Positions 6,262-30,665 of a DNA stretch of 30,715 nt are shown here, piece by piece. Source of the DNA: a virus (Duplodnaviria > Caudoviricetes); IMG/VR virus record IMGVR_UViG_3300005758_000066, positions 1 to 30,715 of that record. One strand, written 5' to 3'. The notes under the pieces were generated by a model that was given only the letters and a program-made list of their open reading frames with translations, did not search any database and was not told the origin of the DNA. Every line of letters starts with the position of its first letter. Position 1 is the first letter of the stretch. Made by a program: the position numbers and the translations under genes.

Positions 6262-6912
6262 TTACCAGACTTTTTGCTGTATTGTTGGATTGTTACCTAC
6301 CCCACCAACGAAACCAATTGATGTACCTGCCGCATTCGCAGGATTCGTTGGTTCATAATCAAAATTTATTCCATAACTACTTACAACAGAACTAGCAACT
6401 CTTAGCTTACCATAACCTATAGGAATAGGTGTATTTCTAGCAGCTATATTAGTTTTACTACTTAATATAAAAGATGATGTTTTTACTTGTTTTGGATCTT
6501 TTGGAGCCAATAGCTTAGAAACTAAAAAGCTTATTCCAAAAGATAGTATTGAAATTAATAATACATTTACTGTAAATGCTATTGCTGCTGCTGATATACC
6601 AGTTGCAGCAGCGGCAGCTACAATTGATGCAGTAGTAGCTGTAACAAATGCACTAAAAACTTGAACTGGTATTAATTCAATCTTATTGCAATTTCTGATA
6701 TCATCATTAATTGTACTTAAATCTGTAATAATTTTATCATCAATTACTACCAAAATAGAATCAAATATATCACTATATCTTTTTAATTTATTACCTAATT
6801 TAGGAAAATTTACAATCAAACACTTTATAATATCATCAAAATTACTAGCTTTGACTGTTAAGCTTCCACATGCCAGCTTCTTCAAAATACCATGTAGTAA
6901 TAATTTTTTCAT
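6262..6912 (-). CDS. Tail assembly protein, lambda gpI-like (ubiquitin-like N-terminus, hydrophobic segment, PIPIGYG motif)
   Basis: MKKLLLHGIL...IELIPV Ubl-like N-terminus, Ala-rich/hydrophobic middle ending LLAPK, C-terminal NIAARNTPIPIGYGKLRVASSVVS. Sits between the K-like and J-like genes. Confidence 0.88.
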   Translation of the reverse strand: MKKLLLHGILKKLACGSLTVKASNFDDIIKCLIVNFPKLGNKLKRYSDIFDSILVVIDDKIITDLSTINDDIRNCNKIELIPVQVFSAFVTATTASIVAAAAATGISAAAIAFTVNVLLISILSFGISFLVSKLLAPKDPKQVKTSSFILSSKTNIAARNTPIPIGYGKLRVASSVVSSYGINFDYEPTNPANAAGTSIGFVGGVGNNPTIQQKVW

Positions 6913-7258
6913 TTTTAATATTTACACCAGAAAAGATGTTATATTTTAAACTATATATAATAATAGGAATATCGAAATTTTTAATAAAAAAGATATCATT
7001 TTCAGAAGGGTCTGCTGAAAAAAGATGGCTATGAAAAGTAAAACTTATATCATCTGGTTTGCATAAATGATTATAAAATATCTTATCTGGTACAAAATTA
7101 ATGAGATCTTTTCTTATAGATTCGCAAAAAATTATTTCAGAATAATTTTTTACTAAACCTCCTGATTCATAAGGATATTTATCTAAACAATAGTTTTTTA
7201 TTGCATTAAAAATATTAGACTGAATATTCAAAAGGTCTAGTTCCTGGAAATGCTCCAT
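6845..7258 (-). CDS. JAB/MPN (Mov34) metallopeptidase, lambda gpK-like, without NlpC/P60 domain
   Basis: YPYESGG (catalytic Glu) ... FHSHLFSADPSEND matches JAMM E-xn-HxH-x(6-7)-S-x2-D. Lies between L and I. Start uncertain: ATG 7276 (ORF track), ATG 7258 or TTG 7231. Confidence 0.85.
   Translation of the reverse strand: MEHFQELDLLNIQSNIFNAIKNYCLDKYPYESGGLVKNYSEIIFCESIRKDLINFVPDKIFYNHLCKPDDISFTFHSHLFSADPSENDIFFIKNFDIPIIIYSLKYNIFSGVNIKNEKIITTWYFEEAGMWKLNSQS
6919..6927 (-). promoter_or_regulatory. GTGTAAATA motif, putative phage late promoter element upstream of the gpI-like gene
   Basis: GTGTAA followed by 9 nt then ATG (6912). The same motif occurs at similar spacing before the TMP and the 16366 fibre gene. 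Confidence 0.45.
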
Positions 7259-8291
7259 AAGGCAATCCCTTTCCATGGTTTTGCCAACGTAATTTACAAG
7301 CTTTTAAATTTTTAGCGCAGCTATCTTTGACCCAATATTCTGGCGATAATTTTGGATCTTTTATTCCATCATTAGCACCACTATAAGTTTTAATACAAAC
7401 ATAAAAAGAATACGAAATACTATCTTCTGAAAATTGTGTTGATTGACCAAAGAAATCATAGTTTATTGAATCTATATATTTGACAAAATCACCAGCAGTA
7501 TAAGTTTCTACTCCTGGATTGTATACTCCTCTATTTTTTATTCGTGTTAAATTATATCCATATGGTGAATAAAATTCCTTATTATTTTCGTCAGCAATAG
7601 GAATACCTTCATTATTTCTATTATTCCATAAATCTACACTGTTTTCTAATATTGGTGTTGTATTATTGGCAACATAAAACTTTTGACCACCTACTGGATC
7701 CCAAGGTATTTTACCATAATTACAACCACAACCACGATACTTCCAGCTACATATATTGTCTGAAATTTTTCTATTTGGTAAACTTTGATTTTCCAAATCA
7801 ATAGGACTGCTAAGATCAAATTCAATATAAAATTTATTTTCCTGACTTTTTCTATTAATTATATAATTATCTTCGTAAAAAGTTTGACCATATCCTAGTA
7901 CAGCATTTCTTTTTTTTCTATATCCAAAAAAAGGATTTACTTGATCAGAAAAATTTGCATCATCTAAATTTCTAACGAAAACTTTTATACGTTTTAATTT
8001 AGAATTTATCAAATCATTTTTATTTTTTATATTATCAGTTATAAAACCATCTACATTTGCCACTCGCAGAGTTGGTCTATTTTGTTTACCATCTGCTGAA
8101 AATTCAAATCCACTAAAATCAACTGGCATAGGTATATAAGTGTTTCCTCTAAAAATAATACTATTAGTAAAATTTTTTCCCGCATGAAATCTGAATATAC
8201 CAGTTGTTTCATCGATATAAACCTCAAATAAATCGACAAAAGAATCAGGATTTAAGTTTATTAATGATGTTGATGAAATTATGTCAGACAT
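7215..8291 (-). CDS. Minor tail protein L (lambda gpL-like) with C-terminal Cys cluster
   Basis: LNP...VDLFE, FRFHAG, IIFRGNTYIPMPV..SGFE...GKQNRPTLRVANVDG, RNLDDANF, YIINRK..EN...IEFDLSSPIDLE...LP.R, CSWKYRGCGCNY ... DSCAKNLKACKLRW, LPYGAFPG. The Cys residues fit the Fe-S-binding C-terminus of gpL. Confidence 0.93.
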   Translation of the reverse strand: MSDIISSTSLINLNPDSFVDLFEVYIDETTGIFRFHAGKNFTNSIIFRGNTYIPMPVDFSGFEFSADGKQNRPTLRVANVDGFITDNIKNKNDLINSKLKRIKVFVRNLDDANFSDQVNPFFGYRKKRNAVLGYGQTFYEDNYIINRKSQENKFYIEFDLSSPIDLENQSLPNRKISDNICSWKYRGCGCNYGKIPWDPVGGQKFYVANNTTPILENSVDLWNNRNNEGIPIADENNKEFYSPYGYNLTRIKNRGVYNPGVETYTAGDFVKYIDSINYDFFGQSTQFSEDSISYSFYVCIKTYSGANDGIKDPKLSPEYWVKDSCAKNLKACKLRWQNHGKGLPYGAFPGTRPFEYSV

Positions 8292-16397: not shown

Positions 16398-17372
16398 TTA
16401 TTCTAAATAATTTCCAACATATGATGGATATATTTTATTTAGATATGTTAAATAAGTTAATTTCACTGTAGTAACATCATCAACTGTACTAGTAACTTGT
16501 TCAGATATTAATCTTGTATTCGAACTACTAAAATTAAATATTGACTGAGAATTTGGATCAATATCATTCTTTTTTAATATTAAAATAGGAACACCAGCTT
16601 CTGTTGTTATTGTAGTTCCATTTTCAGTGGTCATTTCAGCATCCTCATAAACAATTCCATGAACATTAATAGAAAAGCTATCAAAAGAATTACTAAAAAA
16701 AGAATCTGATTGACGCTTAGTTTCATAATCATCAACTTCCATTGTTATATTTGTAGTTACCTCGATAGGCCATTTAGTTTTTATTTGAAATGGAGAAGTT
16801 GAATTAACACGCCAGATTTCATGTTTATTTATTTGTGTGGATAAATCAAAACTTGTAACTCTATTAGTTGAACTACCACGACAAACTATATTAATTGTAC
16901 TTGGAAGAGGAACTTTTAATGGCGCATCTTTTTTATATCCTAATGCATTCAATGATGATGGATCGTCCAACATAGATGCATTTGATGAATCGATATACAA
17001 ACCGCTACCAATATCTCCATAAACTGTTATTCCATAATTGGCTACAGGTGGCTCACCATAATTTACAGAATAAGAGTACGAATTTAAACTTCCTTGATTA
17101 AAACCAAAAACTTTGTCACCATAATTAATAGAACCTCTTATAAATGAGTCTACACCTGTATACATACGCATAAAATCATTAGCAACCATAGTTCTTGTTA
17201 TAGAAAAATCTCCTTGAGGTATTGCGGCAACAACATTTTTAATAACTCCTTGACCCATAATATTTATGGGCTTAACAGTAAGTGAATAAGATCCGTCTAC
17301 TTCAGTAACGTAATCTAATTTACGCCCACCGATATAAACGCTTTGATCGTATTGTGCTTGTGAAAATTTCAT
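16398..17372 (-). CDS. Tail tube-fold paralogue immediately after the TMP (baseplate/tube-initiator-like)
   Basis: LDYVTEVDGSYSLTVKPINIMGQ, GSLNSYSYSVNYGEPPVANYGI, RVTSFDLSTQINKHEIWRV...WPIEVTTNITM and LISEQVTSTVDDVTTVKLTY align by eye with the major tube protein (LDRVQNCNFNFTINRQDINELGQ; GFITEYSLDASVGNIPTASVTV; HIQSFAFTIPLTRTVLQRL...VPLNMDVTINA; LNSESYSTDIGGNQTVDLTY). Start overlaps the TMP stop (TAATG). Confidence 0.65.
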   Translation of the reverse strand: MKFSQAQYDQSVYIGGRKLDYVTEVDGSYSLTVKPINIMGQGVIKNVVAAIPQGDFSITRTMVANDFMRMYTGVDSFIRGSINYGDKVFGFNQGSLNSYSYSVNYGEPPVANYGITVYGDIGSGLYIDSSNASMLDDPSSLNALGYKKDAPLKVPLPSTINIVCRGSSTNRVTSFDLSTQINKHEIWRVNSTSPFQIKTKWPIEVTTNITMEVDDYETKRQSDSFFSNSFDSFSINVHGIVYEDAEMTTENGTTITTEAGVPILILKKNDIDPNSQSIFNFSSSNTRLISEQVTSTVDDVTTVKLTYLTYLNKIYPSYVGNYLE

Positions 17373-20300
17373 TATCGTTTTTTAGTTGAATCTAATAAAC
17401 CACCTGTTCTTTGTTCATTAGTGATTACATCTAATACAACTGATTTAATTCTATTACTTAATTCTTTAGCATTGCCCTCTGTACCGCTTCCAGTATTATC
17501 AGATTCTTCACCATCTGATTTACCATTTGTAGCATTAACTGTAATATTGATCGCAATATTACTATTAGAAGAATTAGATGTATTTGAAGGAGACATCATA
17601 TCAGATTGAACGGGACCACCATCTTGAAATCTTGCGATTCCAGCGTTGATTCTATTCAATCCACCAACACCATATTTTCTTACAGCTTTACTATTAACAA
17701 CGTATTCGCCACCACTTAAATAAGCTGGTATGCTATCAGTTAAACGAGATCCATATGGTAAAAATCCACCTTGGTTAAGTCCAATAATACCACCCTCTTG
17801 ACGACCTCCACGAATTCTTACATTAGGAACTCTTGGTTTAAAATTACTCATATTTCTAGTGAAATTAGAGGCAGAACCTAAATTACTAAAATTAGCATTT
17901 ACTTGTGTACCATATTCTGGAAATAATGAATTATATGGAGTTGTTGTTCCTTGTACATTGTAATTTGGTTTACCTCCAAACATACTTCCAGGTTTAACTG
18001 AAATTCCTGATGCTGCAAATCTACTAGCAGAAATATCATTGAATGTAGACTTAGTTATAGGAGAAGATCCAAAACTTGATTTATTAATCACGGATCCATC
18101 TCCTAATGTTACAGAACCCCCGCTATTTATTAATTTTTTAGCATCACTAAAGCTTGTAACTTGAGTAGTTGTTTTACCATCAGCCATTGTGCCAGTTGCT
18201 CCTTTTAGATTTGCAGAAGCTGCTGAACTTTCTCTCGCAGCACTAACTGCTGATGAAATACCCATAGATATACCAGTTGTTATCAATGTTCCTAAAAATT
18301 GATTTAATAAAGCCTTTCTTTCTGCGCGTTTCTTTTCTTTAGCGGCTTCTTCTTCTCTTATTTTATCCATATAGTTTTGGAACTCTGGACTCTGTTCTCT
18401 TCCAAACATGCTTAATCTTTCAAATGCCGCGCCAGCATCTGCACTTGCAGACATCGTACCGGGGTCTCCACCTGTTGCAAAACGAGGAAATGCATTAAAA
18501 TTCATATTATCAATTGCTTTTGGACCTCCCAAAGCTCTTACAGCATTTCTATTTAATACATATTCGCCATCCTCAAGCAACGCTGGATTTTTATCTCCAG
18601 TTCTTCCACCGCTGATATACATTCCCTTTTGAGCGCGAATAATACCACCTCTTTGTTTAAAATTAGGTTCAACACCAGCGGCTGGTTGACCAAATGAAAA
18701 TGCACTGCCAACGCTACCGACTATATTATTAGCAATATTACGCAACATCATTCCTTGAATTTCTCTCAAGAAAGAAGCAGCAACTCCCATCAAAGCTGAT
18801 TCAAGATCATCAGCTTTGTTAAGAGCAGCATCCATAGCTCCAACCAAACCATCTCTGAAAAGACCTGGAATTTTTTCTCCAAAATCTTTTCTGAAAGTTT
18901 CTCTTTCTTGATTTATAGTATTAAATCCAGCACTTAAACCAACAGAAAAAGACTTAGCATCACGAAGTCTTCTTCTGTCTTCTTCATTTCTTATTTTTAA
19001 TAATTCTGTTTCTTCTTTAACTTTAATATTTATATCTCTGTGAATAGTTTCAAGATCTTTCAAAGTATTAACTTCATCTTGATACATTGGATCTAGTTTA
19101 TCTAAGCCAGCAAGATATTCTTTTTGATATTTTATTAATTCAGGCAAACTTTCTAATGTTAATTTATCTGCATCTTTTTTATTTGCAAAATAAGAATTTT
19201 TCATTCTAGCTGCTATTCCAGCGCTTAAAGGAGATCCACTTGCTTCTAATTTTCTTATTTCATTATTAATTCTATTAATTGCAGCTTCAGCAACTTTTCT
19301 CGCATTTTCTATATCTGATCTAGTTTGTAACTCTAATGATTTTTTACTTTCTTGCTCTCTATATCTAATTTGCAATTCTGATTGTTGTTGCATAGGCATA
19401 TTATAAAAATTAGGTTGATAATTTAAATAACTTTGACTTTTTGCTTGATCAATTTTAAATTGACTTTCTTGTTCTCGCAAAATTGTTTCTCTTTGAGATG
19501 CATACCTAGCAGAACTAGCGGCAGCATTAGCTTCAAAGATTGCCAATTCTTTTCTAATTCTTTGTTGACGAGCGTTTTCTTCAAGAATTTTAGTTTCTCT
19601 TTGTAAATTTGCAGATCTTTCTTCTTCAGCAAATTTTTGCGCTCTTAATAGTTCTTTGAATTTATTTATAGTATCTTCAGTTACATTCTGATTAACAATA
19701 GATTCAAAAAATGATTGATATTCTTGAACGCCAGCATTTTTATTAGCCGTCAATGTTTCTAATCTAGCCATTATATCAGGACTAGCTCCGAAAACAGGAG
19801 TATTGCGAATTTGTTCAGCAAAGGTTTTAGAAAATTCAAAATTAGCTTTACGAGTTTCTCTATCGAAAGAATTTTGTAAAAATGATTTTTTATCTTTTAA
19901 TTCAGACTCTACAAATTGTGCTGGAGTTAATAATCCTTCAATTAATACATTATTAAATGTTGATTTTAATTCATCGAATTTATCTTTAAATTCTTCGGCA
20001 GCTAAATTTCTCTTTAATTCAATATTTGTTTCACTTAAAAAGTTTTCTATAGCTGTATATATACTTGTGGCTGATCTTTGAACATTTAGAGTTCCAGCGC
20101 CTTTTTTAATATCTTGTTTTGCAGATATCATATTACCAAATCTTTCGTTCAAAAATCTTATCGCTTTATAATCTTGACCTGCCGAACTTTCACCTAAAAT
20201 TTTATCATAAAAACTTGGATCAAAAGTGGTTTTAAAATCTTCAAAAAGTTTAATTTGTTGTTTTGGATCTAAAGATTTAACTATATCAGATTGTTTCAAA

Positions 20301-23300
20301 AGAGTTTGTATTATACCTCCTTTTTCAAATAAAGTCGCTCTTTCATCTCTATTACTAGCCTTAATAAGAATAGCACCAATTTTTTTAAAGCTATCATCAA
20401 TTGTAGCTAACTCAGCAATTGTTTGCATAGCTCTTTCGACATCATACTCTGTTCTATCAGATGCTCCTAATATAGATAAACTCATTACTTTTTGTCGTTT
20501 TTCATTTCTTTGTTCAAATTGTTCAAATAAATTTTGTACTTCTACACTAGTACCTGTAGGACTAATTTGATTTCTTAAAGCAGATGGAATCTTTAATAAA
20601 AATTTCTGTCTCTCTTTTTCTGTTTTTAATTGTTCTTTTGGAGATAAACCACCTTGTTCAAGTTTCTTTAATGAATTTAAATATCCTTGAACAGCATCTT
20701 CTTGTTCCTTGTCTCTTTGTATAAAATCTCCAACAACTTTATTAAAATCTTCTACTTTATCTTTTGCAGAAGTCATGGCTCCTGAAAATCCTACTATTGC
20801 ACCTATAGCCGCACCAGCCGCAGTTCCAATTCCTGGTAAAACCATACTACCAATAAAAGCTCCAGTACTTGCACCAGTTAATGTTGCACTTGCACCTGTT
20901 GATGCTAGTCTTTCTGCATATCCCATTTGAGATCTATCTCTACCTCTTGCGACTATAGATTCTAATTGCCCAGCAATCATTGGAACCGCAATTTGAAAAG
21001 CAGGATTATTTACTACATTTGTTAATTTATTATTTAAACTTTGAAAACGACTTGGTTGTGTTGGTTGTGTTATATTATTTGGATTTATTGCTACTCTACT
21101 AGATGATGCTGTAGGCATTGCTCTAGGCGTATTAGCTGCCGCTTGAGCAGTTGCCTGTGCAGCAGCTTTTTGTTGAGCAACAGCATTTTGTTGTAAAGCT
21201 TTAACTAAAGCATTATTAGCATCATTAACTATAGATGCTGACTTAGTACTTTGTTGTAAAACCAATGCATTAGTTTGAACTGTATTAACTAAAATCTGTT
21301 GTTGTTGAGATGTTAATTTCGTATTTCTAGTTAATTCACTCAATGCCTTATTCATATCAACAAACAATTTTTGTTCATTTGTTCCTAATCCCGTAAAAGG
21401 AATTCCAAAAGTTTGTTTAGCATTTACAGTAGCAAAATTAGGAATATAACCACTACTCATCAATCCAGCAGCTTCTTGATTACGCATTGAATCATTTAAA
21501 GCATTTTTTAAACCGCCATGATCAGATATTGCTGAAGCAAAATTTGGTTGATCACTATTTCTAATAAATGGAAAAGGTCCAGTTGTGGTATCAAGAATAG
21601 CATTCTTGCCACTCATGTTTTCTTCAAGACTCATTACTGATTGTTTGTATGCAAAATTAGGAATAAAACCTTTATTCAAACCAAACATTCCTTGATCGTT
21701 AGGATAAGTTTTAGCAAACTCAGTGGCTAATTTAGCAAACGTATTTGGATCATTTAAATTTAAATTTCTTTTCTTAGCTGTTTCTATTAACCAATTTTTT
21801 TGAAAAGAGTTTCTACCTTTAATAAAATTAAAATTAGGTATAAAACCTGAAGACATTTTATTTTCTAATTGAGACTTTTTAAATTGATAAGCGTATTGAA
21901 GAGACCAAACAGGATCATTTTCTGGAGGCCATGTAGATTTATTTTTTGATAAATCTTGCGGATTCATTGGGAACTCATAACTACCATTATTAAATGCTGG
22001 ATCTAAAAACCAATGCTTCATTGGCAATTTTTTATTTTTTACATCACCTTTTCTTAATTTTCTGTAACCGTCCCAAATTCTTCTAGCTTTATCACTAACT
22101 GTAAATCTATCGGATGTCAACCACGCTCCTTTTTTTGATACTTCAGCTAATACCGCATCATATAAAGAAATACCAAATCCAGAACCAGGAATGCTTACGC
22201 TAGAAGATCCAACTGAATATAAATCTGTAGTTTCAGGAACAAGAAAAGCCTTAACTCCACCTGTTAATTTTTTACCTTTTACTTCTGAACCTTTACTATA
22301 AAAAGATTCAACCGCATCTTTACCGCTGTTTATTTTAATTTTTGGATTAGCAAAATTAGGAATAAAACCTCCAGCAGCATTCATTCTCAAAAAGTTAGGA
22401 TCTTTAACATATCTTTCTAGTAACATATTTGTTTCTGCCGATAATTCTTTTACAAAATTAGGAGTATTCTTCAACATTTGAGAATAACTTGTTCCAGCTA
22501 ATTGAATAAAATTTTTACCAAATTCAGATGGCAATTGATTTTCATGTCCTGGCTCATTAAAAATCATAATCGCTTCTTTTATTTTAGCCGCTTGTTCAGG
22601 ATTAGTTTTAAGAACTCTATTATATTTATCGGTCATGTGTTTAGCAACTGAACCGCCCGATAAATTAATTTTTGGAAAACCTTTATAATCAACACCAATT
22701 ATTCCAGCTTTTTGTAAAAAACCTGCATCAAAAGCGGTTTGATCACGAATCGCTCCAGATTGTAATGCGCTACCTGTAACTAATTCACCAAATATATTTG
22801 ATTGATTTACTAATTGTAATGCTCTTCTTCCAAAAGCTTCGTATAATGGACCAAAAATATTAGGATCACCCTGTTTATCGGCGTTTTTGGCAGTGCTTCT
22901 GAATTGAGTTTGTCTAAATGTATCTACATCACTAGCTTTAGAGATGCCTAATGTAGGTTGAATATTATCATAAGCTGGATTAGCAAATTTTTTGAACCAA
23001 GGAATTCTCATTGCGCTAGTAGGAGGAGCAAAATTAGGAATGAAACCTTGAGATTTTTGAGCAACAGCGTGAATAACTGTACCTAATTTAGCAGAAATTA
23101 CATCTTTTTCTTTATTTCTTTTGAATGAATTTGGAGATGTTTTTGCATAACCTCTTAAAAATTTTTCTAATATAACCTCATCAGAAACATCGTTTTTCCT
23201 AACTTTTGTTTCTACAAAAGAAACCCTATTTGCAATAATCTTGCTAAAATCAGGTCCAATTTGATTGATCAGTTTACTATGTTTACTAAATATTTTTGCA

Positions 23301-25576
23301 GTATCATTTTCTGCAAATCCTCCAGCAATTTTATTTAAATGTTTTTTTGCATCTGTAGTATCTGGTTCTTCAAAGTATTTTTTTTCTAAAGCTTGAGCGT
23401 ATCCTCCAGTTACATTTTTTAAATATTTATTTGCATTTTCTAAACCACCATTTGCCCCTTGTGTTTTATAAATTTTCAAAGCATTGTTAAAAGCATAAGC
23501 CGCTTTCAATCGATATTCATCATATGTGTATGGCAATTTGAACATTTTTATTAATCCTTGATCATCATATTTATCATAATATGTTTGATTATCAACTCGA
23601 TCTCCTACATCATAAAGATTATTTAAACTTTCCTTTCCTAACGATTTAATGCTTTTTTCTGCAAAATTAGGAATAAATCCACTAGCCATATATGGATCAA
23701 TACCTGTTCTATTTATAGCATTTTGTCTATGTTTGCGACCAGCTTTTGAATTAGCAGGAGGATTTATAAAAGGTTGAGCAAAACCAGAAACATATTTTAC
23801 TTCTTCCGCAGAATTCATGTATGTATTAGCACCAACTGATCTTGGAGCTTTTACAACTTTGCCCGATTTATAACCACCCATTGCTGCACCCATTCTTTCA
23901 GACATTTCAGCAAAAGCTGGAATATGACCACCAGCTTTGATTCTTGGTCCAACTTGTATACCTCTACTTCCAACAGTAACATTTTGAGCAGCTAATAATG
24001 GTGCTAATTGTTGAGCGATTTGTAATTGTTGTTGATATTGAGCGGTTTGTAATTTAGCGTAATTTAATATTGTTGCTGCTTGAGTAGCCGCATTGCCTTG
24101 CTGACCTTGCAAAGCTAAAGATAAATTTGATTGCGTTTGTAATATTGCAATAATTGATTTTTCAATATTAGCTCTTTTTTGAGCTTCAGTTGTTAAACCT
24201 AAAATTGCTGGCAAAGCTTTTGTAGCATCTTCAAAAGTATTTTTAGCAACTTTAGCAATAACTGCAAATGTAACTGCTAAACCTGGACCAGCAATTACAT
24301 TTCTTATTCCTTTTAATAAACCATTAGCAAAAATTGAACCTGGACCTTCGCCTTCTAATGTATCATTTATATATTTTACTGCATCATTAATTGGTGAAAC
24401 AATAGCTTCAAATAATGGAGCAAAAGTTACTTTACCAATATTATTAGCTAATTGTTGCAAACCAACTCCTGTCTGTGCTGCCAATGCTGATAAAGTTTTA
24501 TTTAATTTCTGATTAGCTATATCAGCTTCGTTTGAAGCTTGTGCGCCTCTTTCAAGAGCTTTTGAATATGTGCTTTGAACACCAGTTAAATCTGTAATTA
24601 TTCCTTTAAGAATGTTTACTTGATAAACACCAGCAACTTGTTCTGATAATTGTGCGCGTTGAGCATCAGCTAAATCATTATATTTATTTGCGAAATTCTG
24701 CAATATTTGCACTGCTGGTAAAATATTACCTTGGACATCACGAACAATTATGTTAAATTTTTCTAATTGATCAAGTGTTTCAGTTCTTTGTAAACGAGTA
24801 AAAATAGTTTTTAATGCGTTACCAATTACTGCTCCACCTCTTGCTGTATTTTGTTGAGCAGTTGTAACTAAAGCATTTAATTCATCGAAATCAACGCCAG
24901 CTTCTTGAGCAGCTTGACCTGTTCTAGATAATGCTTCGGTCAAGTCCGCTGCTGAAACAGCGAAATCTTGTTCAACCGCTGCTAATTTATTTACAACCTG
25001 AGTTGTTGTTAATCCAGCTTTAGAAAAACCGTTGATAGTTGCTGTTAGATCTTCTACAGCTTTTGTTGAACTTATTCCTGTAAGACGAACTAATGTTAAT
25101 GCATCAGCAGTTCTTTTTAGAGTTTCTTCTGTATCTAAACCTTGACGGGAAAACTCTAGCGCAGCTTTACTAGCATCATTAAATGATGAAGCTGTTTGTT
25201 TTGAAACATTGAATAATTCCGAAGAAAATTTTTGCAAACCCGACGTAGATAAGTTAAGTACACGATTAATATCTGTTAATGATTTTTCAACTTCTATTGT
25301 TACATTTGCAATCTCTTTAAAAGCTTTAGTAACACCACCTAAAACAGCAGTTGAAGCGCCGAATGCTAATACGCGAGCATTAGAAGCTTTAAGCGCAGAC
25401 TCAAAATCAGCAAGATCACTCGTAATTCTTCCCAATGGCTGAGAAAAATTTCTTGAATTGATCTGTAAATTTAATTGATTTTGTCCCGCATATCTAGCGT
25501 TAAAAGCCGCAACTCCTTGAGCTATGCTTTGAGCTAATGCTGTTTGACTGGCTTGAACATTAATCTGTACAGACAT
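17372..25576 (-). CDS. Tail tape measure protein (TP901-type N-terminal core) carrying an internal array of enzyme-like cassettes
   Basis: 2734 aa. N-terminal TMP core EKSLTDINRVL...AALEFSRQG...LTATINGF...AVSAADLTEALSR...VDFDELNALVT...GAVIGNALKTIFTRL. Long Ala/Gln/Glu/Lys helical tracts, a Gly/Ala hydrophobic segment (GAFIGSMVLPGIGTAAGAAIGAIVG), and C-terminal DSIPAYLSGGEYVV motifs. Follows the chaperone pair. Confidence 0.93.
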   Translation of the reverse strand: MSVQINVQASQTALAQSIAQGVAAFNARYAGQNQLNLQINSRNFSQPLGRITSDLADFESALKASNARVLAFGASTAVLGGVTKAFKEIANVTIEVEKSLTDINRVLNLSTSGLQKFSSELFNVSKQTASSFNDASKAALEFSRQGLDTEETLKRTADALTLVRLTGISSTKAVEDLTATINGFSKAGLTTTQVVNKLAAVEQDFAVSAADLTEALSRTGQAAQEAGVDFDELNALVTTAQQNTARGGAVIGNALKTIFTRLQRTETLDQLEKFNIIVRDVQGNILPAVQILQNFANKYNDLADAQRAQLSEQVAGVYQVNILKGIITDLTGVQSTYSKALERGAQASNEADIANQKLNKTLSALAAQTGVGLQQLANNIGKVTFAPLFEAIVSPINDAVKYINDTLEGEGPGSIFANGLLKGIRNVIAGPGLAVTFAVIAKVAKNTFEDATKALPAILGLTTEAQKRANIEKSIIAILQTQSNLSLALQGQQGNAATQAATILNYAKLQTAQYQQQLQIAQQLAPLLAAQNVTVGSRGIQVGPRIKAGGHIPAFAEMSERMGAAMGGYKSGKVVKAPRSVGANTYMNSAEEVKYVSGFAQPFINPPANSKAGRKHRQNAINRTGIDPYMASGFIPNFAEKSIKSLGKESLNNLYDVGDRVDNQTYYDKYDDQGLIKMFKLPYTYDEYRLKAAYAFNNALKIYKTQGANGGLENANKYLKNVTGGYAQALEKKYFEEPDTTDAKKHLNKIAGGFAENDTAKIFSKHSKLINQIGPDFSKIIANRVSFVETKVRKNDVSDEVILEKFLRGYAKTSPNSFKRNKEKDVISAKLGTVIHAVAQKSQGFIPNFAPPTSAMRIPWFKKFANPAYDNIQPTLGISKASDVDTFRQTQFRSTAKNADKQGDPNIFGPLYEAFGRRALQLVNQSNIFGELVTGSALQSGAIRDQTAFDAGFLQKAGIIGVDYKGFPKINLSGGSVAKHMTDKYNRVLKTNPEQAAKIKEAIMIFNEPGHENQLPSEFGKNFIQLAGTSYSQMLKNTPNFVKELSAETNMLLERYVKDPNFLRMNAAGGFIPNFANPKIKINSGKDAVESFYSKGSEVKGKKLTGGVKAFLVPETTDLYSVGSSSVSIPGSGFGISLYDAVLAEVSKKGAWLTSDRFTVSDKARRIWDGYRKLRKGDVKNKKLPMKHWFLDPAFNNGSYEFPMNPQDLSKNKSTWPPENDPVWSLQYAYQFKKSQLENKMSSGFIPNFNFIKGRNSFQKNWLIETAKKRNLNLNDPNTFAKLATEFAKTYPNDQGMFGLNKGFIPNFAYKQSVMSLEENMSGKNAILDTTTGPFPFIRNSDQPNFASAISDHGGLKNALNDSMRNQEAAGLMSSGYIPNFATVNAKQTFGIPFTGLGTNEQKLFVDMNKALSELTRNTKLTSQQQQILVNTVQTNALVLQQSTKSASIVNDANNALVKALQQNAVAQQKAAAQATAQAAANTPRAMPTASSSRVAINPNNITQPTQPSRFQSLNNKLTNVVNNPAFQIAVPMIAGQLESIVARGRDRSQMGYAERLASTGASATLTGASTGAFIGSMVLPGIGTAAGAAIGAIVGFSGAMTSAKDKVEDFNKVVGDFIQRDKEQEDAVQGYLNSLKKLEQGGLSPKEQLKTEKERQKFLLKIPSALRNQISPTGTSVEVQNLFEQFEQRNEKRQKVMSLSILGASDRTEYDVERAMQTIAELATIDDSFKKIGAILIKASNRDERATLFEKGGIIQTLLKQSDIVKSLDPKQQIKLFEDFKTTFDPSFYDKILGESSAGQDYKAIRFLNERFGNMISAKQDIKKGAGTLNVQRSATSIYTAIENFLSETNIELKRNLAAEEFKDKFDELKSTFNNVLIEGLLTPAQFVESELKDKKSFLQNSFDRETRKANFEFSKTFAEQIRNTPVFGASPDIMARLETLTANKNAGVQEYQSFFESIVNQNVTEDTINKFKELLRAQKFAEEERSANLQRETKILEENARQQRIRKELAIFEANAAASSARYASQRETILREQESQFKIDQAKSQSYLNYQPNFYNMPMQQQSELQIRYREQESKKSLELQTRSDIENARKVAEAAINRINNEIRKLEASGSPLSAGIAARMKNSYFANKKDADKLTLESLPELIKYQKEYLAGLDKLDPMYQDEVNTLKDLETIHRDINIKVKEETELLKIRNEEDRRRLRDAKSFSVGLSAGFNTINQERETFRKDFGEKIPGLFRDGLVGAMDAALNKADDLESALMGVAASFLREIQGMMLRNIANNIVGSVGSAFSFGQPAAGVEPNFKQRGGIIRAQKGMYISGGRTGDKNPALLEDGEYVLNRNAVRALGGPKAIDNMNFNAFPRFATGGDPGTMSASADAGAAFERLSMFGREQSPEFQNYMDKIREEEAAKEKKRAERKALLNQFLGTLITTGISMGISSAVSAARESSAASANLKGATGTMADGKTTTQVTSFSDAKKLINSGGSVTLGDGSVINKSSFGSSPITKSTFNDISASRFAASGISVKPGSMFGGKPNYNVQGTTTPYNSLFPEYGTQVNANFSNLGSASNFTRNMSNFKPRVPNVRIRGGRQEGGIIGLNQGGFLPYGSRLTDSIPAYLSGGEYVVNSKAVRKYGVGGLNRINAGIARFQDGGPVQSDMMSPSNTSNSSNSNIAINITVNATNGKSDGEESDNTGSGTEGNAKELSNRIKSVVLDVITNEQRTGGLLDSTKKR
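21431..23929 (-). repeat. Seven dispersed copies of the peptide motif G-[FYH]-I-P-[NA]-F-[AN] inside the TMP
   Basis: Copies at 23909-23929 (GHIPAFA, aa550), 23660-23680 (GFIPNFA, aa633), 23027-23047 (aa844), 22349-22369 (aa1070), 21827-21847 (GFIPNFN, aa1244), 21650-21670 (aa1303) and 21431-21451 (GYIPNFA, aa1376). Confidence 0.95.
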
Positions 25577-25599: not shown

Positions 25600-26586
25600 T
25601 TAGGTCGCTCCCATTAATTTCATCAAATCATTCATATCTAAACTGCCGCCTTTTTTCTTCGCCTCCTCAGAAAGACTCAAAGCTTTTCTATCTCCCTTAT
25701 CCATATTAATGTATTTATAATCTTCTTTAGTTGCACCAACAATTGACTGAGCTTGATTGTCTTTGTCTTTTATTCTTTCTTTAGCCTTTTCATTTGCATT
25801 GATGTAATCAATAAGTTTATCTGGATCTTTTCTTATATTATCTGGGATCTTATCATTAGTTGATAATATATTTTTAAAATATCTGGCATATAAAATTAAA
25901 CGCAATTGATTATATGTTAAATTTATAATAGGTTTGCCATAAAAGTGAATAGGATCTTCACAATAAGGCATATAATAAGTAAAAAAATCTTCTAAAACCA
26001 TCCTTTGAATACGAGAATCGGTAAATTCGTTTAAAGTTTTATTATATAAATTTATTAAATAAGATAAATCATCAGATGAAATTTCATCAAAATCATCATC
26101 ATTATAATATAAAATTTTTAATTCAGAATCTTTAAACAATGTGAATTTAAGAAATTCTTCTGTTACTCTTTGCTCCGCATAATTTTCGCATGTATTACCT
26201 AAATAAGAACTCCGTTTATTCTTTAAATCATTTAGTTTAGTAACTGACTCATTAATTTGTTTATTCAATACATCAATTTGTGACTTTAAATATGTATTTT
26301 TTTTCTGTTCATTTATTTTTAGCAAAAAAACTTCTTCTTGTTTTATTGCGCTTTCATCTTTTTCTGTCCAATAACCTTCTTCTTTCAAATTAATCAAAGC
26401 TTCTTCAACTGTAGGTATACCTCTTTTTTTAGCTTCTTCGATGTATTCGCTTTTATACTCATCGAGTAATACTTGATCTGAAACGCTTATATGTTTGAAA
26501 TAAAATTTGCCAAGATTACAACTAATTAAAGTATAACCTTGGCAAATATCTCTGAAATTCTTCTTATAAATTAAAGAAGTATCCAT
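25600..26586 (-). CDS. Tail assembly chaperone, GT-like (G-like N-terminal domain plus C-terminal extension)
   Basis: Immediately upstream of the TMP, charged and helical. N-terminal ~190 aa resemble the upstream 252-aa protein. Function inferred from position. Confidence 0.65.
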   Translation of the reverse strand: MDTSLIYKKNFRDICQGYTLISCNLGKFYFKHISVSDQVLLDEYKSEYIEEAKKRGIPTVEEALINLKEEGYWTEKDESAIKQEEVFLLKINEQKKNTYLKSQIDVLNKQINESVTKLNDLKNKRSSYLGNTCENYAEQRVTEEFLKFTLFKDSELKILYYNDDDFDEISSDDLSYLINLYNKTLNEFTDSRIQRMVLEDFFTYYMPYCEDPIHFYGKPIINLTYNQLRLILYARYFKNILSTNDKIPDNIRKDPDKLIDYINANEKAKERIKDKDNQAQSIVGATKEDYKYINMDKGDRKALSLSEEAKKKGGSLDMNDLMKLMGAT

Positions 26587-27344
26587 TATTGACCAGCTAA
26601 AATCTTATCGAATTCTTCCTTATCTACCTTACCAGTGAAGAACCAGAAACTAATAATACTAGCCAACTTATTGTATGCTTTAGAGTAAATTTCATCATCT
26701 TTATCCTCTAAAGAAAATAATACTTCTTCTTTCTCTTCGAATGTTTTTCCTGGAAAAATAGGTACATAATCTGTGTGATTCTTGCTTGAGTCCTTGTAAA
26801 AACTCAATGTTAAAACATACCATAGAATTGATTTATTTTGAGCTTTTGTATCTGCTGTATGATTAAAAAGATTTAAATAACTCGTTTCTCTTTCTACAAT
26901 GGTTCTTCTAATTTCAATTAGATCAGATTGTTTTTCATTTATGAGTTGTTTGTCTTCTTCAGTACGTTCAGATTCAGGCTTGAGATTAAGATTAGCTAAT
27001 TCTACTTGCAAACCATAGTATTTTTCATAATTAGAATTTAATTCAGTAGAATCTTTTTCATTAACTAAACCACCAGTATCGCTATACTTATTAAGCAACA
27101 TCGTCTTTGTTAAGATTCCCTGCTTAATACACTTACTCATTTCTATTGAATATACCATTTCAGCCTCTTGCACTTGTTTTCGATTCGGCAATTTAATTGC
27201 AATTTCTACTGGAATAGTCTTTTCAACCATCTCAGTAATAGTTCGCTCTTTTTCTACACCATTTTCATCGGTATACTTTTCTTGCCTTTTCTCAGAAATT
27301 TTTGCGACCTTTTCGATATTAAATGTGTAAATGTACTTAGACAT
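26586..27344 (-). CDS. Tail assembly chaperone, G-like
   Basis: First gene of the minus-strand block, two genes before the TMP. Charged, with a coiled-coil stretch. TAATG coupling to the next gene. Confidence 0.6.
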   Translation of the reverse strand: MSKYIYTFNIEKVAKISEKRQEKYTDENGVEKERTITEMVEKTIPVEIAIKLPNRKQVQEAEMVYSIEMSKCIKQGILTKTMLLNKYSDTGGLVNEKDSTELNSNYEKYYGLQVELANLNLKPESERTEEDKQLINEKQSDLIEIRRTIVERETSYLNLFNHTADTKAQNKSILWYVLTLSFYKDSSKNHTDYVPIFPGKTFEEKEEVLFSLEDKDDEIYSKAYNKLASIISFWFFTGKVDKEEFDKILAGQ

Positions 27345-27384: not shown

Positions 27385-27840
27385 ATGGGAACTAGTTTAT
27401 TAACTTCTACTGAAAAAGCAGCTTTGGCGGCTGTTTTTGATGATATACATGAAACTTTTGCCCGTGAAATAACTGTTTTTAAAGAAGCTTCAACAGTTGT
27501 TATCATAACAGACCCTAATTATAATCCGTTGTATAAAACTGCTGGTCAAACTACTTCAGTTATAAATACACCTGTTTATAAGACATTTAAAGCAAGAATT
27601 CAATATCAAGATGACGTTGGTAAAAAATATTGGAGTGAACAAGGTCTTAATTCTCAAATAAAACTAGAAGCTGTAGTTGGAACTGTTAGATTAAAAATAG
27701 ATCAAGTTGCTTATGATTATGTTAAAGACGCTCGTCGTTTCGATGTTGATGGCAAGAGATATGTTTTGAATTCAACATTTAGACCTCACGGTTTATTTGA
27801 TATACAATATTATACATTATATCTCAAACCCGATCCCTAA
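27385..27840 (+). CDS. Putative head-closure / head-tail joining protein
   Basis: 151 aa, beta-rich C-terminal half (TFKARIQY...GTVRLKID...RFDVDGKRYVL...YYTLYLKP), as in SPP1 gp16/lambda gpFII-type stoppers. First of three small genes before the major tube gene. Confidence 0.5.
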   Translation: MGTSLLTSTEKAALAAVFDDIHETFAREITVFKEASTVVIITDPNYNPLYKTAGQTTSVINTPVYKTFKARIQYQDDVGKKYWSEQGLNSQIKLEAVVGTVRLKIDQVAYDYVKDARRFDVDGKRYVLNSTFRPHGLFDIQYYTLYLKPDP

Positions 27841-27842
27841 AA

Positions 27843-28442
27843 ATGACAAAACTTGATTCGTCAGAATTACAACAAATTGCCGAACAATTAGTAAAAGAAA
27901 ATAATTATATAAAATATGTTTATACAGAACTTCAAAAAGAAATTGAAAAAATTAAAGAAGAAATTCTTGAAGAATTTGAAAACCATCCTATCACTCAAGA
28001 AATAAAAGGAGGTATCGAAGCTTCGAATATTTCTAATACCTTGAATGGCATAACTAATTTATATTCTTTTATAGGTTTTGAAAATGGCGATAGACCACTA
28101 GATCCTATTCGCGAAGAATTAAAAAAAATAAAATTAAAATATACTATAAATAATAAAGGAGAATTAGTTTTTAACGTTGAATTTCCTACAGCCAAAGATA
28201 TTTTCAAAGTGACCCCTATGCCTTGGGCCACAGGAAGAAGTTGGGCGCAAGGAATTGAAATAGGAATATCTGGATTAGGATATTATATTAAAAAAGTTAA
28301 AAATAGTAGATCTGGATTAGGCGTACAATCTGAAACACAAGTAAGATCTGGAGCAAGATTCAAAAATACAAAATATATATCTCAATTAATTAATTCATAT
28401 ACAAAAAAAATTCAAAATTTATCTAAGAATACAACGTTATGA
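27843..28442 (+). CDS. Putative neck/tail-completion protein
   Basis: 199 aa, helical N- and C-termini, PWATGRSWAQGIEIGISGLG core. Positioned between the closure-like and terminator-like genes (HK97 gp10-like slot). Assignment is by synteny only. Confidence 0.4.
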   Translation: MTKLDSSELQQIAEQLVKENNYIKYVYTELQKEIEKIKEEILEEFENHPITQEIKGGIEASNISNTLNGITNLYSFIGFENGDRPLDPIREELKKIKLKYTINNKGELVFNVEFPTAKDIFKVTPMPWATGRSWAQGIEIGISGLGYYIKKVKNSRSGLGVQSETQVRSGARFKNTKYISQLINSYTKKIQNLSKNTTL

Positions 28443-29299
28443 TTCCAGCATTTTCACATAATATAACCAACAGTTTTTTTCTATGGTTTGATAATAATTT
28501 AATGAGAAAAGCAGATGCATATAAAAATTATACTACAAAATTATATAACTATAGCGATGCCAGACTTGGTGATAATAAAGTAGTTTACGGTAGTCCATAC
28601 AAACAATGGGTTTATGATAAAAGTATAACTGGCGCAGTTATTCCAACTGGTTTTACAATTGATGGCGCATTTATACCAACTGGCACAAGCGGAATGTTCA
28701 TTGATTTTGAAAACGGTAGAATCATTTTTAATAGTGGTGTATCTACGAATTTAAATATAACTGGAACATACGGAGTTAAAGAAATAAATTCATATATAAC
28801 AGATCAACCAGAAGATAATCTTATAATTGAAGGTAAATATGTAACTAACAGTAGGTTTACTGTCACAGAAACTTATGTCGCACCTTATAATCCAGTAGTG
28901 CCTTGCGCTTTTATTTCTATTGAAAATATTGACAACAATGGATTTGCTTTAGGAGGCGAAGACGAAACTAGAGTAAGAATGAAAGCTGTTGTATTTGCGG
29001 AAAATTTATATCAACTAGATGGTGTTTTAAGCGTATTCGCTGATACATACAATACTAATTTTAATATTATTCCAATGGTAAATCATCCTCTTGGAGAATA
29101 CAATAATTTAAAAACAGGTTTATACCCAACAGGATACGATTATATAAACGTTAATAAACAATATAGTGATAATAAATGCTATATATATGATGTCACAACA
29201 TCAAAAATAAAAGATGACGTTATAAAAGAGCTTAATCCAATTTTACATATAGGTTTTATAGATTGGAACATCGGCAACATAAGATACCCAAGATTATAA
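28439..29299 (+). CDS. Putative tail terminator / tail-completion protein
   Basis: 286 aa, ATGA overlap with the previous gene. C-terminal half PCAFIS...FALGGEDETRVRMKAVVFAENLYQLDGVLSVF fits an alpha/beta terminator-type fold. Directly precedes the major tail tube gene. Confidence 0.5.
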   Translation: MIPAFSHNITNSFFLWFDNNLMRKADAYKNYTTKLYNYSDARLGDNKVVYGSPYKQWVYDKSITGAVIPTGFTIDGAFIPTGTSGMFIDFENGRIIFNSGVSTNLNITGTYGVKEINSYITDQPEDNLIIEGKYVTNSRFTVTETYVAPYNPVVPCAFISIENIDNNGFALGGEDETRVRMKAVVFAENLYQLDGVLSVFADTYNTNFNIIPMVNHPLGEYNNLKTGLYPTGYDYINVNKQYSDNKCYIYDVTTSKIKDDVIKELNPILHIGFIDWNIGNIRYPRL

Positions 29300-29357
29300 T
29301 TTCACAAAATAACCCATACACTGTAAAAATAATTAACATTTTAACAAATAAAAAATT

Positions 29358-30665
29358 ATGGCAAGAAATCGTGTAATTTACCAAAGTCAGGCTTTATATA
29401 TAGCTCCAAATAGCACTGGTATTCAAACTAGTGGCTATGGCATGGCTGATCCAGTAACTGCCGCATACACAACTGGCGAATTAGCTAGTGGTATTGGTCT
29501 ATTATATAAACTAGACAGAGTACAAAATTGTAATTTCAATTTTACAATTAATCGTCAAGACATCAACGAACTAGGTCAACTAGCTCGTATCGATAGTATC
29601 GTTAATGATACTCCTACAGTAGGTTTAGATTTCAGTTATTATATTACTGATGGTCTAAATGAAAGATTAATGGGATTCAATTTTTCTGGAAGATCTACTG
29701 GAGTAAATAATTTCCCTTTAGACACCCAATCTATTTCTGGAGCAAGCGCAATTTCTGGATTGATGGTTGATACTCAAGGTAATAATTATTATATTCTCAC
29801 TGTTGATGAAGGTGAAGATGTAGTTAATGCAGACCTAGCTAGTAATAATAATTCTGTTATTGCTATAGGTAATGGTTTTATTACTGAATATAGTTTGGAT
29901 GCTTCTGTTGGAAATATTCCAACTGCAAGTGTAACTGTTGAAGCTTTTAATATCAAGAGCGATGTAAATAAAACTCGACTACTTGATAATGGAACAACCG
30001 TTCTAACTGGAAGATCACCAGCAGTTGATTATAGTCAAACTCCAGCAACTCGTTTGACTGGTAATAATAGAGGATATATTATCAGTGGTGCTAATAATAC
30101 AGCGGGAGTAAGCACAGTATCTGCTCTTCGTCCTGGTGATATTGTTTTGTCTCTACCAGTAAATGATGGATTCACTGAACTTGATGATGCATCTAATAGA
30201 GCGCACATTCAAAGTTTTGCTTTCACAATTCCTCTTACAAGAACAGTGCTACAAAGATTGGGTAATGTTTTTGGATTCGCTCGCGTACTAGAAGTTCCAT
30301 TGAACATGGATGTAACAATTAATGCAGTAGTTAATGAACTTCAAGATGCTGATATATTTGATCAACTTTGCGGAACCGCTGATAAGAAAAACTTTATTGT
30401 TACTCTAAATCAATGTGCTGATGTAGGTGGCACAGTAACTCCTAAATTAGTTTATCAAATTAAAGGTGCTATTCTAAATTCTGAAAGTTATTCAACAGAT
30501 ATTGGTGGAAATCAAACTGTTGATTTGACTTATAACGTTCAAATTGGTGGCGCAAATGACACAAATAATGGTATATTTTTTAGCGGTTCTTATACAACTG
30601 GAGCCGCTATGACAAGTGGCGTATTGAATAACTATTATAAGCTTGGAACAGGTAAGAATTACTAA
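29358..30665 (+). CDS. Major tail tube protein (two tandem tube-fold subdomains)
   Basis: 435 aa, Gly/Ser/Thr/Asn-rich and beta-rich, with an internal duplication (RVQNCNFNFTINRQDINELG versus HIQSFAFTIPLTRTVLQRLG; ITEYSLDASVG versus LNSESYSTDIG). Followed by a strong terminator, as expected for a highly expressed structural gene. Confidence 0.75.
   Translation: MARNRVIYQSQALYIAPNSTGIQTSGYGMADPVTAAYTTGELASGIGLLYKLDRVQNCNFNFTINRQDINELGQLARIDSIVNDTPTVGLDFSYYITDGLNERLMGFNFSGRSTGVNNFPLDTQSISGASAISGLMVDTQGNNYYILTVDEGEDVVNADLASNNNSVIAIGNGFITEYSLDASVGNIPTASVTVEAFNIKSDVNKTRLLDNGTTVLTGRSPAVDYSQTPATRLTGNNRGYIISGANNTAGVSTVSALRPGDIVLSLPVNDGFTELDDASNRAHIQSFAFTIPLTRTVLQRLGNVFGFARVLEVPLNMDVTINAVVNELQDADIFDQLCGTADKKNFIVTLNQCADVGGTVTPKLVYQIKGAILNSESYSTDIGGNQTVDLTYNVQIGGANDTNNGIFFSGSYTTGAAMTSGVLNNYYKLGTGKNY

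Follow-up and report, generated by a model that had tools for sequence, protein, structure and literature searches.

Exchangeable, motif-fenced cassettes within the tape measure protein of a siphophage: a candidate injected polyprotein

The stretch of DNA studied here (the window) is the entire 30.7-kb virus record IMGVR_UViG_3300005758_000066 of IMG/VR (30,715 nucleotides; CheckV completeness 26%), whose gene content is that of a siphophage tail operon with a lambda-like tip, as judged from Pfam and PHROG matches. This work deals with its tape measure protein (TMP) and with an array of modules, fenced by a short repeated motif, in the middle of that protein. The TMP gene (17372..25576, on the minus strand like the other features given here unless stated otherwise) codes for 2,734 amino acids (aa), none of which is a cysteine. 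Its place among the siphophage tape measures is indicated both by sequence family (PF10145 at aa 123-316, E=3.9e-27, and ten PHROG tape-measure families) and by gene position, the lambda-like tail tip genes M, L, I and J following it (matches to PF05939, PF05100, phrog_32 and phrog_31). Filling of the tail lumen, setting of tail length and ejection are putative functions of this protein, drawn from its membership of the TMP group. Seven copies of the motif G[FYH]IP[NA]F start at aa 550, 633, 844, 1070, 1244, 1303 and 1376, occupying nucleotides 23929 to 21431 and separated by spacers of 76, 204, 219, 167, 52 and 66 aa. These copies and spacers had been given exactly in the original prediction, made from the sequence of the window alone; not even one copy appeared in any of 2,000 shuffles (0/2,000), and the six frames of the window held no further copy. 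The array had also been described as unlike TMP scaffold sequence, and its composition indeed differs from that of the N-terminal scaffold (aromatic residues 11% vs 5%, proline 5% vs 2%), a conserved region (aa 1-549; 23930..25576) that holds most of the invariant columns of alignment A1.

From its N-terminal side, the array reads F6-F18-F2-F26-F12-F1 in terms of the cassette families defined below. Motif copy 1 (GHIPAFA, 23909..23929), degenerate (GYIPxx) in most relatives, opens the frame domain F6 (module 1, 76 aa, 23681..23908), predicted to be a small alpha/beta fold (model confidence, pLDDT, 82-94; 89 in the block around the motif). Motif copy 2 (GFIPNFA, 23660..23680) is predicted to be linker-like, with low pLDDT, and forms the left edge of the exchangeable array; loose ends of public contigs fall in it at 23661 and 23662. 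The first slot is then occupied by family F18 (module 2, 204 aa, 23048..23659), a predicted PD-(D/E)xK nuclease with the candidate catalytic residues E756, D776, E789 and K791 of the TMP, followed by motif copy 3 (GFIPNFA, 23027..23047) and by F2 (module 3, 219 aa, 22370..23026), another predicted PD-(D/E)xK nuclease (E913, D950, D963 and K965). Motif copy 4 (GFIPNFA, 22349..22369), supported like copy 3 by the pattern scan and by contig ends, separates it from F26 (module 4, 167 aa, 21848..22348), a predicted GNAT acetyltransferase with a glycine loop. Motif copy 5 (GFIPNFN, 21827..21847), within which 99%-identical F26 pieces stop at 21830 in three runs, precedes F12 (module 5, 52 aa, 21671..21826), a short basic module found in 10/120 homologues. 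Motif copy 6 (GFIPNFA, 21650..21670, from the pattern scan) is the right edge of the exchangeable array, after which come the conserved frame domain F1 (module 6, 66 aa, 21452..21649) and motif copy 7 (GYIPNFA, 21431..21451), kept as protein but the least uniform as DNA in the comparison of junctions and loci. Further downstream, a hydrophobic glycine-zipper stretch (aa 1572-1605; 20762..20863) is likely to be membrane-inserting, on the basis of hydropathy and of weak Gly-zipper Pfam matches below cut-off.

A search with aa 380-645 as query returned 411 homologues (1,503-4,785 aa long), and the 120 best of them were taken into the analysis. Each of these 120 carried 2-9 motif copies by the simple pattern, and a profile scan found 652 copies in them against 0 in shuffles. 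Their 529 inter-motif segments (counted from at least 25 aa) fell into 47 families, arranged in 77 architectures, in a constant order: the F6 frame, a first slot (15 families), F2, 0-5 accessory cassettes and the F1 frame, beyond which there is no further motif copy. F6-type segments were present in 119/121 proteins, F1 in 119/120 homologues (mean identity 77%) and F2 in 94/120. Six mutually unrelated modules had been proposed; modules 1 and 6 turn out to be this fixed frame, and modules 2 and 3 share a catalytic pattern, so that the proposal holds only in part. Moreover, a scan of IMG/VR DNA for the 20-nucleotide form of the motif yielded at least 155 loci, 81 of them with flanks and some overlapping on one contig; 80/81 of the flanked loci were long cysteine-free open reading frames (ORFs) with at least two motif copies, and they brought 34 further cassette families. 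Three related TMP loci (L075, L076 and L078; 1,850 aa where complete) have neither frame domains nor array and run directly into the glycine zipper; the array, as this comparison reads, is therefore an optional insertion. In six other proteins (L012, L021, L088, P0039, P0069 and P0077), motif copies only 3-21 aa apart look like scars of cassette loss. A distant TMP (L089:7489-9399) has modules fenced by AxGG joints instead of GFIPNF, without any Pfam match; by eye, one of them shows HExxH, one is ART-like and one ParB-like. The post-array part, corresponding to 17372-21430 of the window, measures 1,068-1,679 aa in 104 complete homologues; it is motif-free, and its length is nearly independent of that of the array (r=0.21). 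GYVPNFA also occurs once in a tail-fibre-like protein of 1,102 aa that contains internal repeats (L109:1583-4891), which was read as a chance occurrence; it was the sole copy of the motif lying outside the TMP among five partial genomes, which had no orphan cassettes.

Predicted activities could be assigned to several cassettes. The original prediction of two PD-(D/E)xK-like modules and one GNAT-like module agrees with the catalytic residues of modules 2 and 3, which have the E..D..[ED]xK pattern in common, and with the Atlas match of module 4. When 17 cassettes, most of them from the first slot, were aligned at 14-34% identity, no column was invariant except D137, E150 and a K further on; E117 was kept in at least 90%, and K, R or V stood two residues after E150; patterns of G..E, D and [ED]xK characterise the first-slot families. 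The nearest named Atlas family of F18 was YqaJ, at 0.76 only. In F2, E63, D100 and K115 were invariant (26/26), with D or E at position 113; its model (pLDDT 86.9; predicted TM score, pTM, 0.86) gave as its top 50 structural matches nearly all restriction-endonuclease-fold proteins, each match being weak and the best one being Hjc (Z 4.7, root-mean-square deviation 3.3 over 94 aa; best Foldseek E 8e-3). F2 is thus predicted to adopt a nuclease-like fold and provides one confident globular model. The top Atlas match of F26 was a viral GNAT cluster (0.95, 197/256 features), 36% of whose members carry PF00583; GxGFG was invariant in five F26 sequences, and searches of F26 itself gave no match to Pfam or to PDB sequences. 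Module 4 is accordingly predicted, on these sequence features, to be a GNAT. One first-slot family (20 members) is a staphylococcal-type nuclease (SNase, PF00565), whereas others are PD-(D/E)xK-like, and the first slot therefore appears to select activity, not ancestry. Among accessory cassettes, family F3 is above the Pfam GNAT cut-off (PF00583), and a 638-aa cassette (L088:10390-12303) has a PcfJ-like domain (PF14284, E=2.9e-7); HAD-, kinase-, P-loop- and ART-like modules were recognised from weak matches or by-eye motifs only.

Several searches on the modules returned nothing. PADLOC flagged 0/18 cassettes, profile searches of PDB sequences with the F2, first-slot, F26 and C-terminal alignments gave no match, and comparison of the first-slot and F2 profiles scored 0.6%, though the E, D and ExK columns were aligned. 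When the F6+F18 model was used for fold searches, only generic helical matches came back, all from its low-confidence part, so that F6 receives no fold assignment. Homology between F6, F1 and the C-terminal GEYV-type domains, plausible by eye, was rejected: hhalign on motif-free cores gave 0.2-41%, which is not significant, and a score of 88% was produced by the shared motifs. An automatic catalytic-triad screen was also set aside, as it missed F2 and flagged GNAT-like families. Among close relatives, no free-standing F2 gene was found, five short F2 matches carrying the motif and looking like TMP fragments, and no free-standing F26 gene, the sole match being a fragment.

The original prediction had expected cassette number and identity to vary exactly at the motif on a conserved N-terminal scaffold, and this is what homologues, junctions, protein pairs, contigs and the scaffold tree all indicate. 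Across 406 internal junctions, identity tracks the left cassette as far as position -3, whereas from position +6 onwards it tracks the right one, and since identity switches between these positions the crossover falls, as far as the alignments resolve it, within GFIPNF. Among pairs of proteins with at least 95% identical scaffolds, the arrays differed in 87/108 (68/120 proteins, those with complete N-termini, entered this comparison, and 52 were filtered out). On a FastTree scaffold tree of 120 tips, the first slot required 62 changes for its 15 states, F12 10 for its 10 carriers, F26 5 for 5 and F2 only 3, counts that may partly reflect poor resolution among close tips. Public contigs tell the same story, with 99%-identical cassettes joined at the motif to different neighbours: a 573-nucleotide F26 piece with three differences stops at 21830, where the beginning of family F21 takes over, and in another contig the end of F13 is joined to the motif at 23047. 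Among the loose contig ends listed, 10/24 lie within a motif, the motifs covering 4% of the stretch. That the motif DNA is the crossover point had been overlooked in the original prediction.

Codon use within the motif was then compared with these exchanges. The proline codon of the motif is CCT in 81% of cases against 44% expected from codon use, with higher values in 48/50 loci. This bias fits crossover at the motif but is not decisive for it, because shared descent yields similar bias elsewhere: other single orthologous proline sites reach 73-91% CCT by descent (4/12 sites outside the second motif copy). At the protein level, 253 motif copies are coded by 77 different 18-mers, all synonymous codons occurring; all 253 are in frame within the TMP, none lies in 638 kb of flanks, and near-consensus motif DNA occurs only in TMP frame 0 (214/214). 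The last motif copy, where no exchange takes place, is kept in 45/45 loci scored. Given this variety of 18-mers, the strict framing and the retention of the last copy, the constraint on the motif is read from the sequences as acting on the protein, and these copies do not behave as an integron-like, frame-independent DNA recombination site. Recombination within the 18-20 nucleotides coding for the motif is very probably the route of exchange.

The motif may also be read as a cut site. T5 pb2 is cut after R1127 (PMC10038345), within the sequence NSFVPR|AEGGMM. The closest match to this maturation site in the present TMP is GGIIR-AQKG (aa 2310-2318; 18623..18649), at the start of a C-terminal domain pair, and GGx[IVL]xA[QE]xG is present in 112/121 proteins; the second copy of the domain pair matches lambda gpH 726-795 (hhalign 84.7%, E=6.7e-6). 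In the distant relatives L079, L085 and L089, the array motif takes the form VPNFAGG or is replaced by AxGG joints. On account of the likeness to the T5 site, the site at aa 2314 and these distant forms, we read GFIPNF|A as a putative tandem form of a TMP maturation word. In 636/652 copies NF is followed by A, G, S, V or N, and the residue at this place goes with the downstream cassette. As for the enzyme, a 143-aa gene at the lambda K position, between the gpL-like and gpI-like genes (6845..7276), lacks an NlpC/P60 part and has no Pfam match; it shows the pattern E...HSH...S..D, which resembles that of a JAB/MPN metalloprotease, and a Prok-JAB match was found in 1/3 related partial genomes. 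This JAB-like gene is a candidate protease. For lambda gpH, both the cut site and the catalysis are stated as unknown in the accessible part of PMC12617516.

The composition of the cargo is consistent with passage through the virion. The cassettes contained one cysteine in 84,524 aa (one in 7,878 aa when each family was represented by one member), compared with a cysteine content of 0.65% over the 548 other ORFs in these loci, and T5 pb2 and lambda gpH have no cysteine. The cargo is almost cysteine-free like the ruler, and we infer from its composition that the cassettes share the ruler's route through virion and envelope. All cargo families were also net basic (45/45), compared with 44% and 43% of the windows of the scaffold and with 11% among the other ORFs, and so were the 34/34 further families from IMG/VR; this charge may help import against the membrane potential, or bind entering DNA.

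No small immunity-like gene adjoins the TMP, as originally noted: the neighbouring genes code for 328 aa upstream and 324 aa downstream, and the next long ORF starts within -4 to +12 nucleotides of the TMP stop in 56/65 loci (no ORF in eight, at +56 in one). Elsewhere in the window, two genes at the tail-chaperone position (25600-27344, minus strand) and four oppositely oriented genes (27385-30665, plus strand) had no convincing Pfam or PHROG match. Freshwater metagenomes were the best holders among public runs, and contigs from RNA runs match short parts of the window only, which is not evidence of expression. Scaffold-like contigs (65-90% identity) turn up in genome bins that bear the names Flavobacterium and Gammaproteobacteria, among others, and may be mis-binned phage DNA. 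Two different TMP contigs, L094 and L096 (90% and 65% scaffold identity), share one bin labelled uncultured Flavobacterium, either a hint of the host or mis-binning.

Taken together, these results lead us to propose an optional, ordered, motif-fenced array that is exchanged at the motif and may be injected as a polyprotein, a proposal on which our confidence is evenly balanced. The tail assembly chaperones, and later the tube, would keep the chain of cassettes unfolded; such unfolded storage would explain the missing immunity gene. At infection, the cassettes would leave with the ruler, and the ejected chain would be anchored by the glycine zipper (compare PMC10240207). Cutting at the motif, predicted as GFIPNF|A, would free the cassettes, which would refold into nucleases and into enzymes that modify proteins, all active ahead of phage gene expression, with host take-over or anti-defence as the proposed purpose. 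Travel in the virion and delivery to the host cytoplasm are probable; given delivery, cleavage at the motif is somewhat favoured. The reading as an injected effector polyprotein, already put forward in the original prediction, is in line with exchange at the motif, the fold of module 3, the GNAT likeness of module 4 and a cargo composition that fits virion passage, and the view of cassettes as globular domains is upheld for module 3, with its confident model and restriction-endonuclease-fold matches.

Several observations weigh against this proposal and give room to others. The likeness of the motif to the T5 site was noted by eye, the closer counterpart of the T5 site is the solitary one at aa 2314 and not the array motif, hhalign of the flanking domains with T5 pb2C was not significant, and no protease was identified, HExxH being absent from this TMP and present in only 3/121 proteins. 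The model of F18 is poor (pLDDT 25-61, no usable model), the structural scores of F2 are individually weak, most cassettes match neither Pfam nor NCBIfam, and binding of nucleic acids might by itself account for the basic charge. Codon use predicts less uniform motif DNA than is observed, so that part of the motif's conservation may come from recombination and not from a protein signal, and none of 50,697 GenBank phage records matched as a relative, leaving the group without a cultured phage or host. Finally, the only TMP-fused enzyme to have been characterised, the virion RNA polymerase in the N-terminal part of the P23-45 TMP, is proposed to stay on the pore (PMC10770324). This last point would suit delivery without cutting, the motif serving as a signal for docking on, or spacing from, the tail tube, chaperones or frame domains, and the enzymes working at the inner membrane, next to the incoming DNA, while still attached to the ejected ruler. 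The missing protease, the membrane-type glycine zipper after the array and the predicted order of motif copy 1 within the F6 fold would agree with such tethering, which we nevertheless consider rather unlikely: a near-invariant peptide between all domain pairs exceeds the needs of a tether, motif copy 2 is predicted to be a flexible linker, and the motif resembles a mapped TMP cut site.

The very fast replacement of the nuclease slot raises another explanation, in which selfish or phage-against-phage nucleases hit the DNA of co-infecting phages, or act in the producer cell after excision during tail assembly, and spread like free-standing homing endonucleases. All first-slot families inspected are indeed nuclease-like, including the unrelated SNase fold, and the structural matches of F2 include a PD-(D/E)xK homing endonuclease (Z 3.6). 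We regard this explanation as improbable, since the accessory cassettes are GNAT-, HAD-, kinase- and ART-like rather than nucleases, the slot order is fixed and loss of cysteine is unexpected for enzymes that stay out of the virion throughout. A still simpler account would make the motif a mere recombination joint and neutral linker without a processing signal, its modules being passengers or length filler. It could draw on the existence of the array-less relatives, on the preference for CCT in 51/58 families and on the internal motif copies, which lie nearer the 20-nucleotide consensus (1.4 mismatches) than the edge copies (2.4 and 2.8). The bias at other proline sites makes the CCT preference indecisive, however, and the use of all synonymous codons, the keeping of the motif where exchange is absent and catalytic residues that stay invariant at 14-34% identity make this account very improbable.

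The proposed injected array may be compared with known systems. In the Thermus phage P23-45, gp96 is likewise a giant siphophage TMP with a cytoplasm-acting enzyme towards its N terminus, for which delivery at injection has been proposed, but it has one fixed enzyme, and the accessible text of PMC10770324 reports no repeated motif, exchange or cleavage. Cutting of a TMP during assembly is described for T5 (pb2 to pb2* and pb2C; PMC10038345) and lambda (gpH to gpH* and gpHC; PMC12617516). In T5 the site FVPR|AEGG separates an enzymatic domain, and the present TMP shares with these systems a site of like sequence at aa 2314 and a C-terminal domain akin to gpH 726-795. Both of those systems differ in having a single C-terminal cut, which yields a cell-wall enzyme or no enzyme, and proteases given as unknown, whereas a related-looking motif occurs here 2-9 times in mid-protein, around nucleases and transferases. 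Polyvalent proteins (Iyer et al., 2017; PMC5512222) similarly combine several unrelated enzymes, GNAT, ART and kinase among them, in one polypeptide, which is predicted to be injected along with the DNA and then divided by proteases. The two to 15 disparate domains that define them have their counterpart here in nuclease-, GNAT-, SNase, PcfJ-, HAD- and kinase-like modules, and early delivery with the DNA would follow from TMP identity and composition. Phage polyvalent proteins are thought to be capsid-packaged, often with their own zincin peptidase; a zincin-like metallopeptidase is embedded in about 36% of them and is not universal (PMC5512222), and none is embedded in this TMP, which has no HExxH. 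The term "tape measure" does not appear in the main text of PMC5512222 as available, nor does a short delimiter motif or slot order, and the accessible part of PMC7824862 does not link tape measures with polyvalent proteins. A description of a motif-delimited TMP cassette layout was not found in open-licence PMC and bioRxiv articles, though the external architecture lists of PMC5512222 might hold such proteins.

Exchange, for its part, recalls another class of proteins. In polymorphic toxins, including phage MuF toxins, variable nuclease cassettes recombine on a conserved delivery scaffold; these toxins have one C-terminal toxin, an adjacent immunity gene and orphan cassettes. The present array differs in its several internal cassettes and in having no immunity gene beside it. 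It would work like a polyvalent protein housed in a TMP and is exchanged like polymorphic-toxin cassettes. The motif-fenced TMP array is real, and is a new form of both enzyme-bearing tape measures and polyvalent proteins. We suggest, tentatively and with doubt slightly outweighing belief, that in a widespread aquatic group of siphophages the TMP serves as a programmable multi-effector magazine, in which the motif would be both a protease site and a DNA crossover point, and the cargo would be adapted for threading through tail and membrane.

The motif offers a handle on how and where TMPs are cut, and together with the frame domains it is small enough for tests in laboratory phages. If the proposal is true, the approximately 80 mostly unannotated cassette families would form a catalogue of first-minute phage effectors. 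Tape measures are regarded as rulers and as conduits for DNA that bear a single enzyme at most; a recombining enzyme array would make the non-contractile tail a general route of protein delivery.

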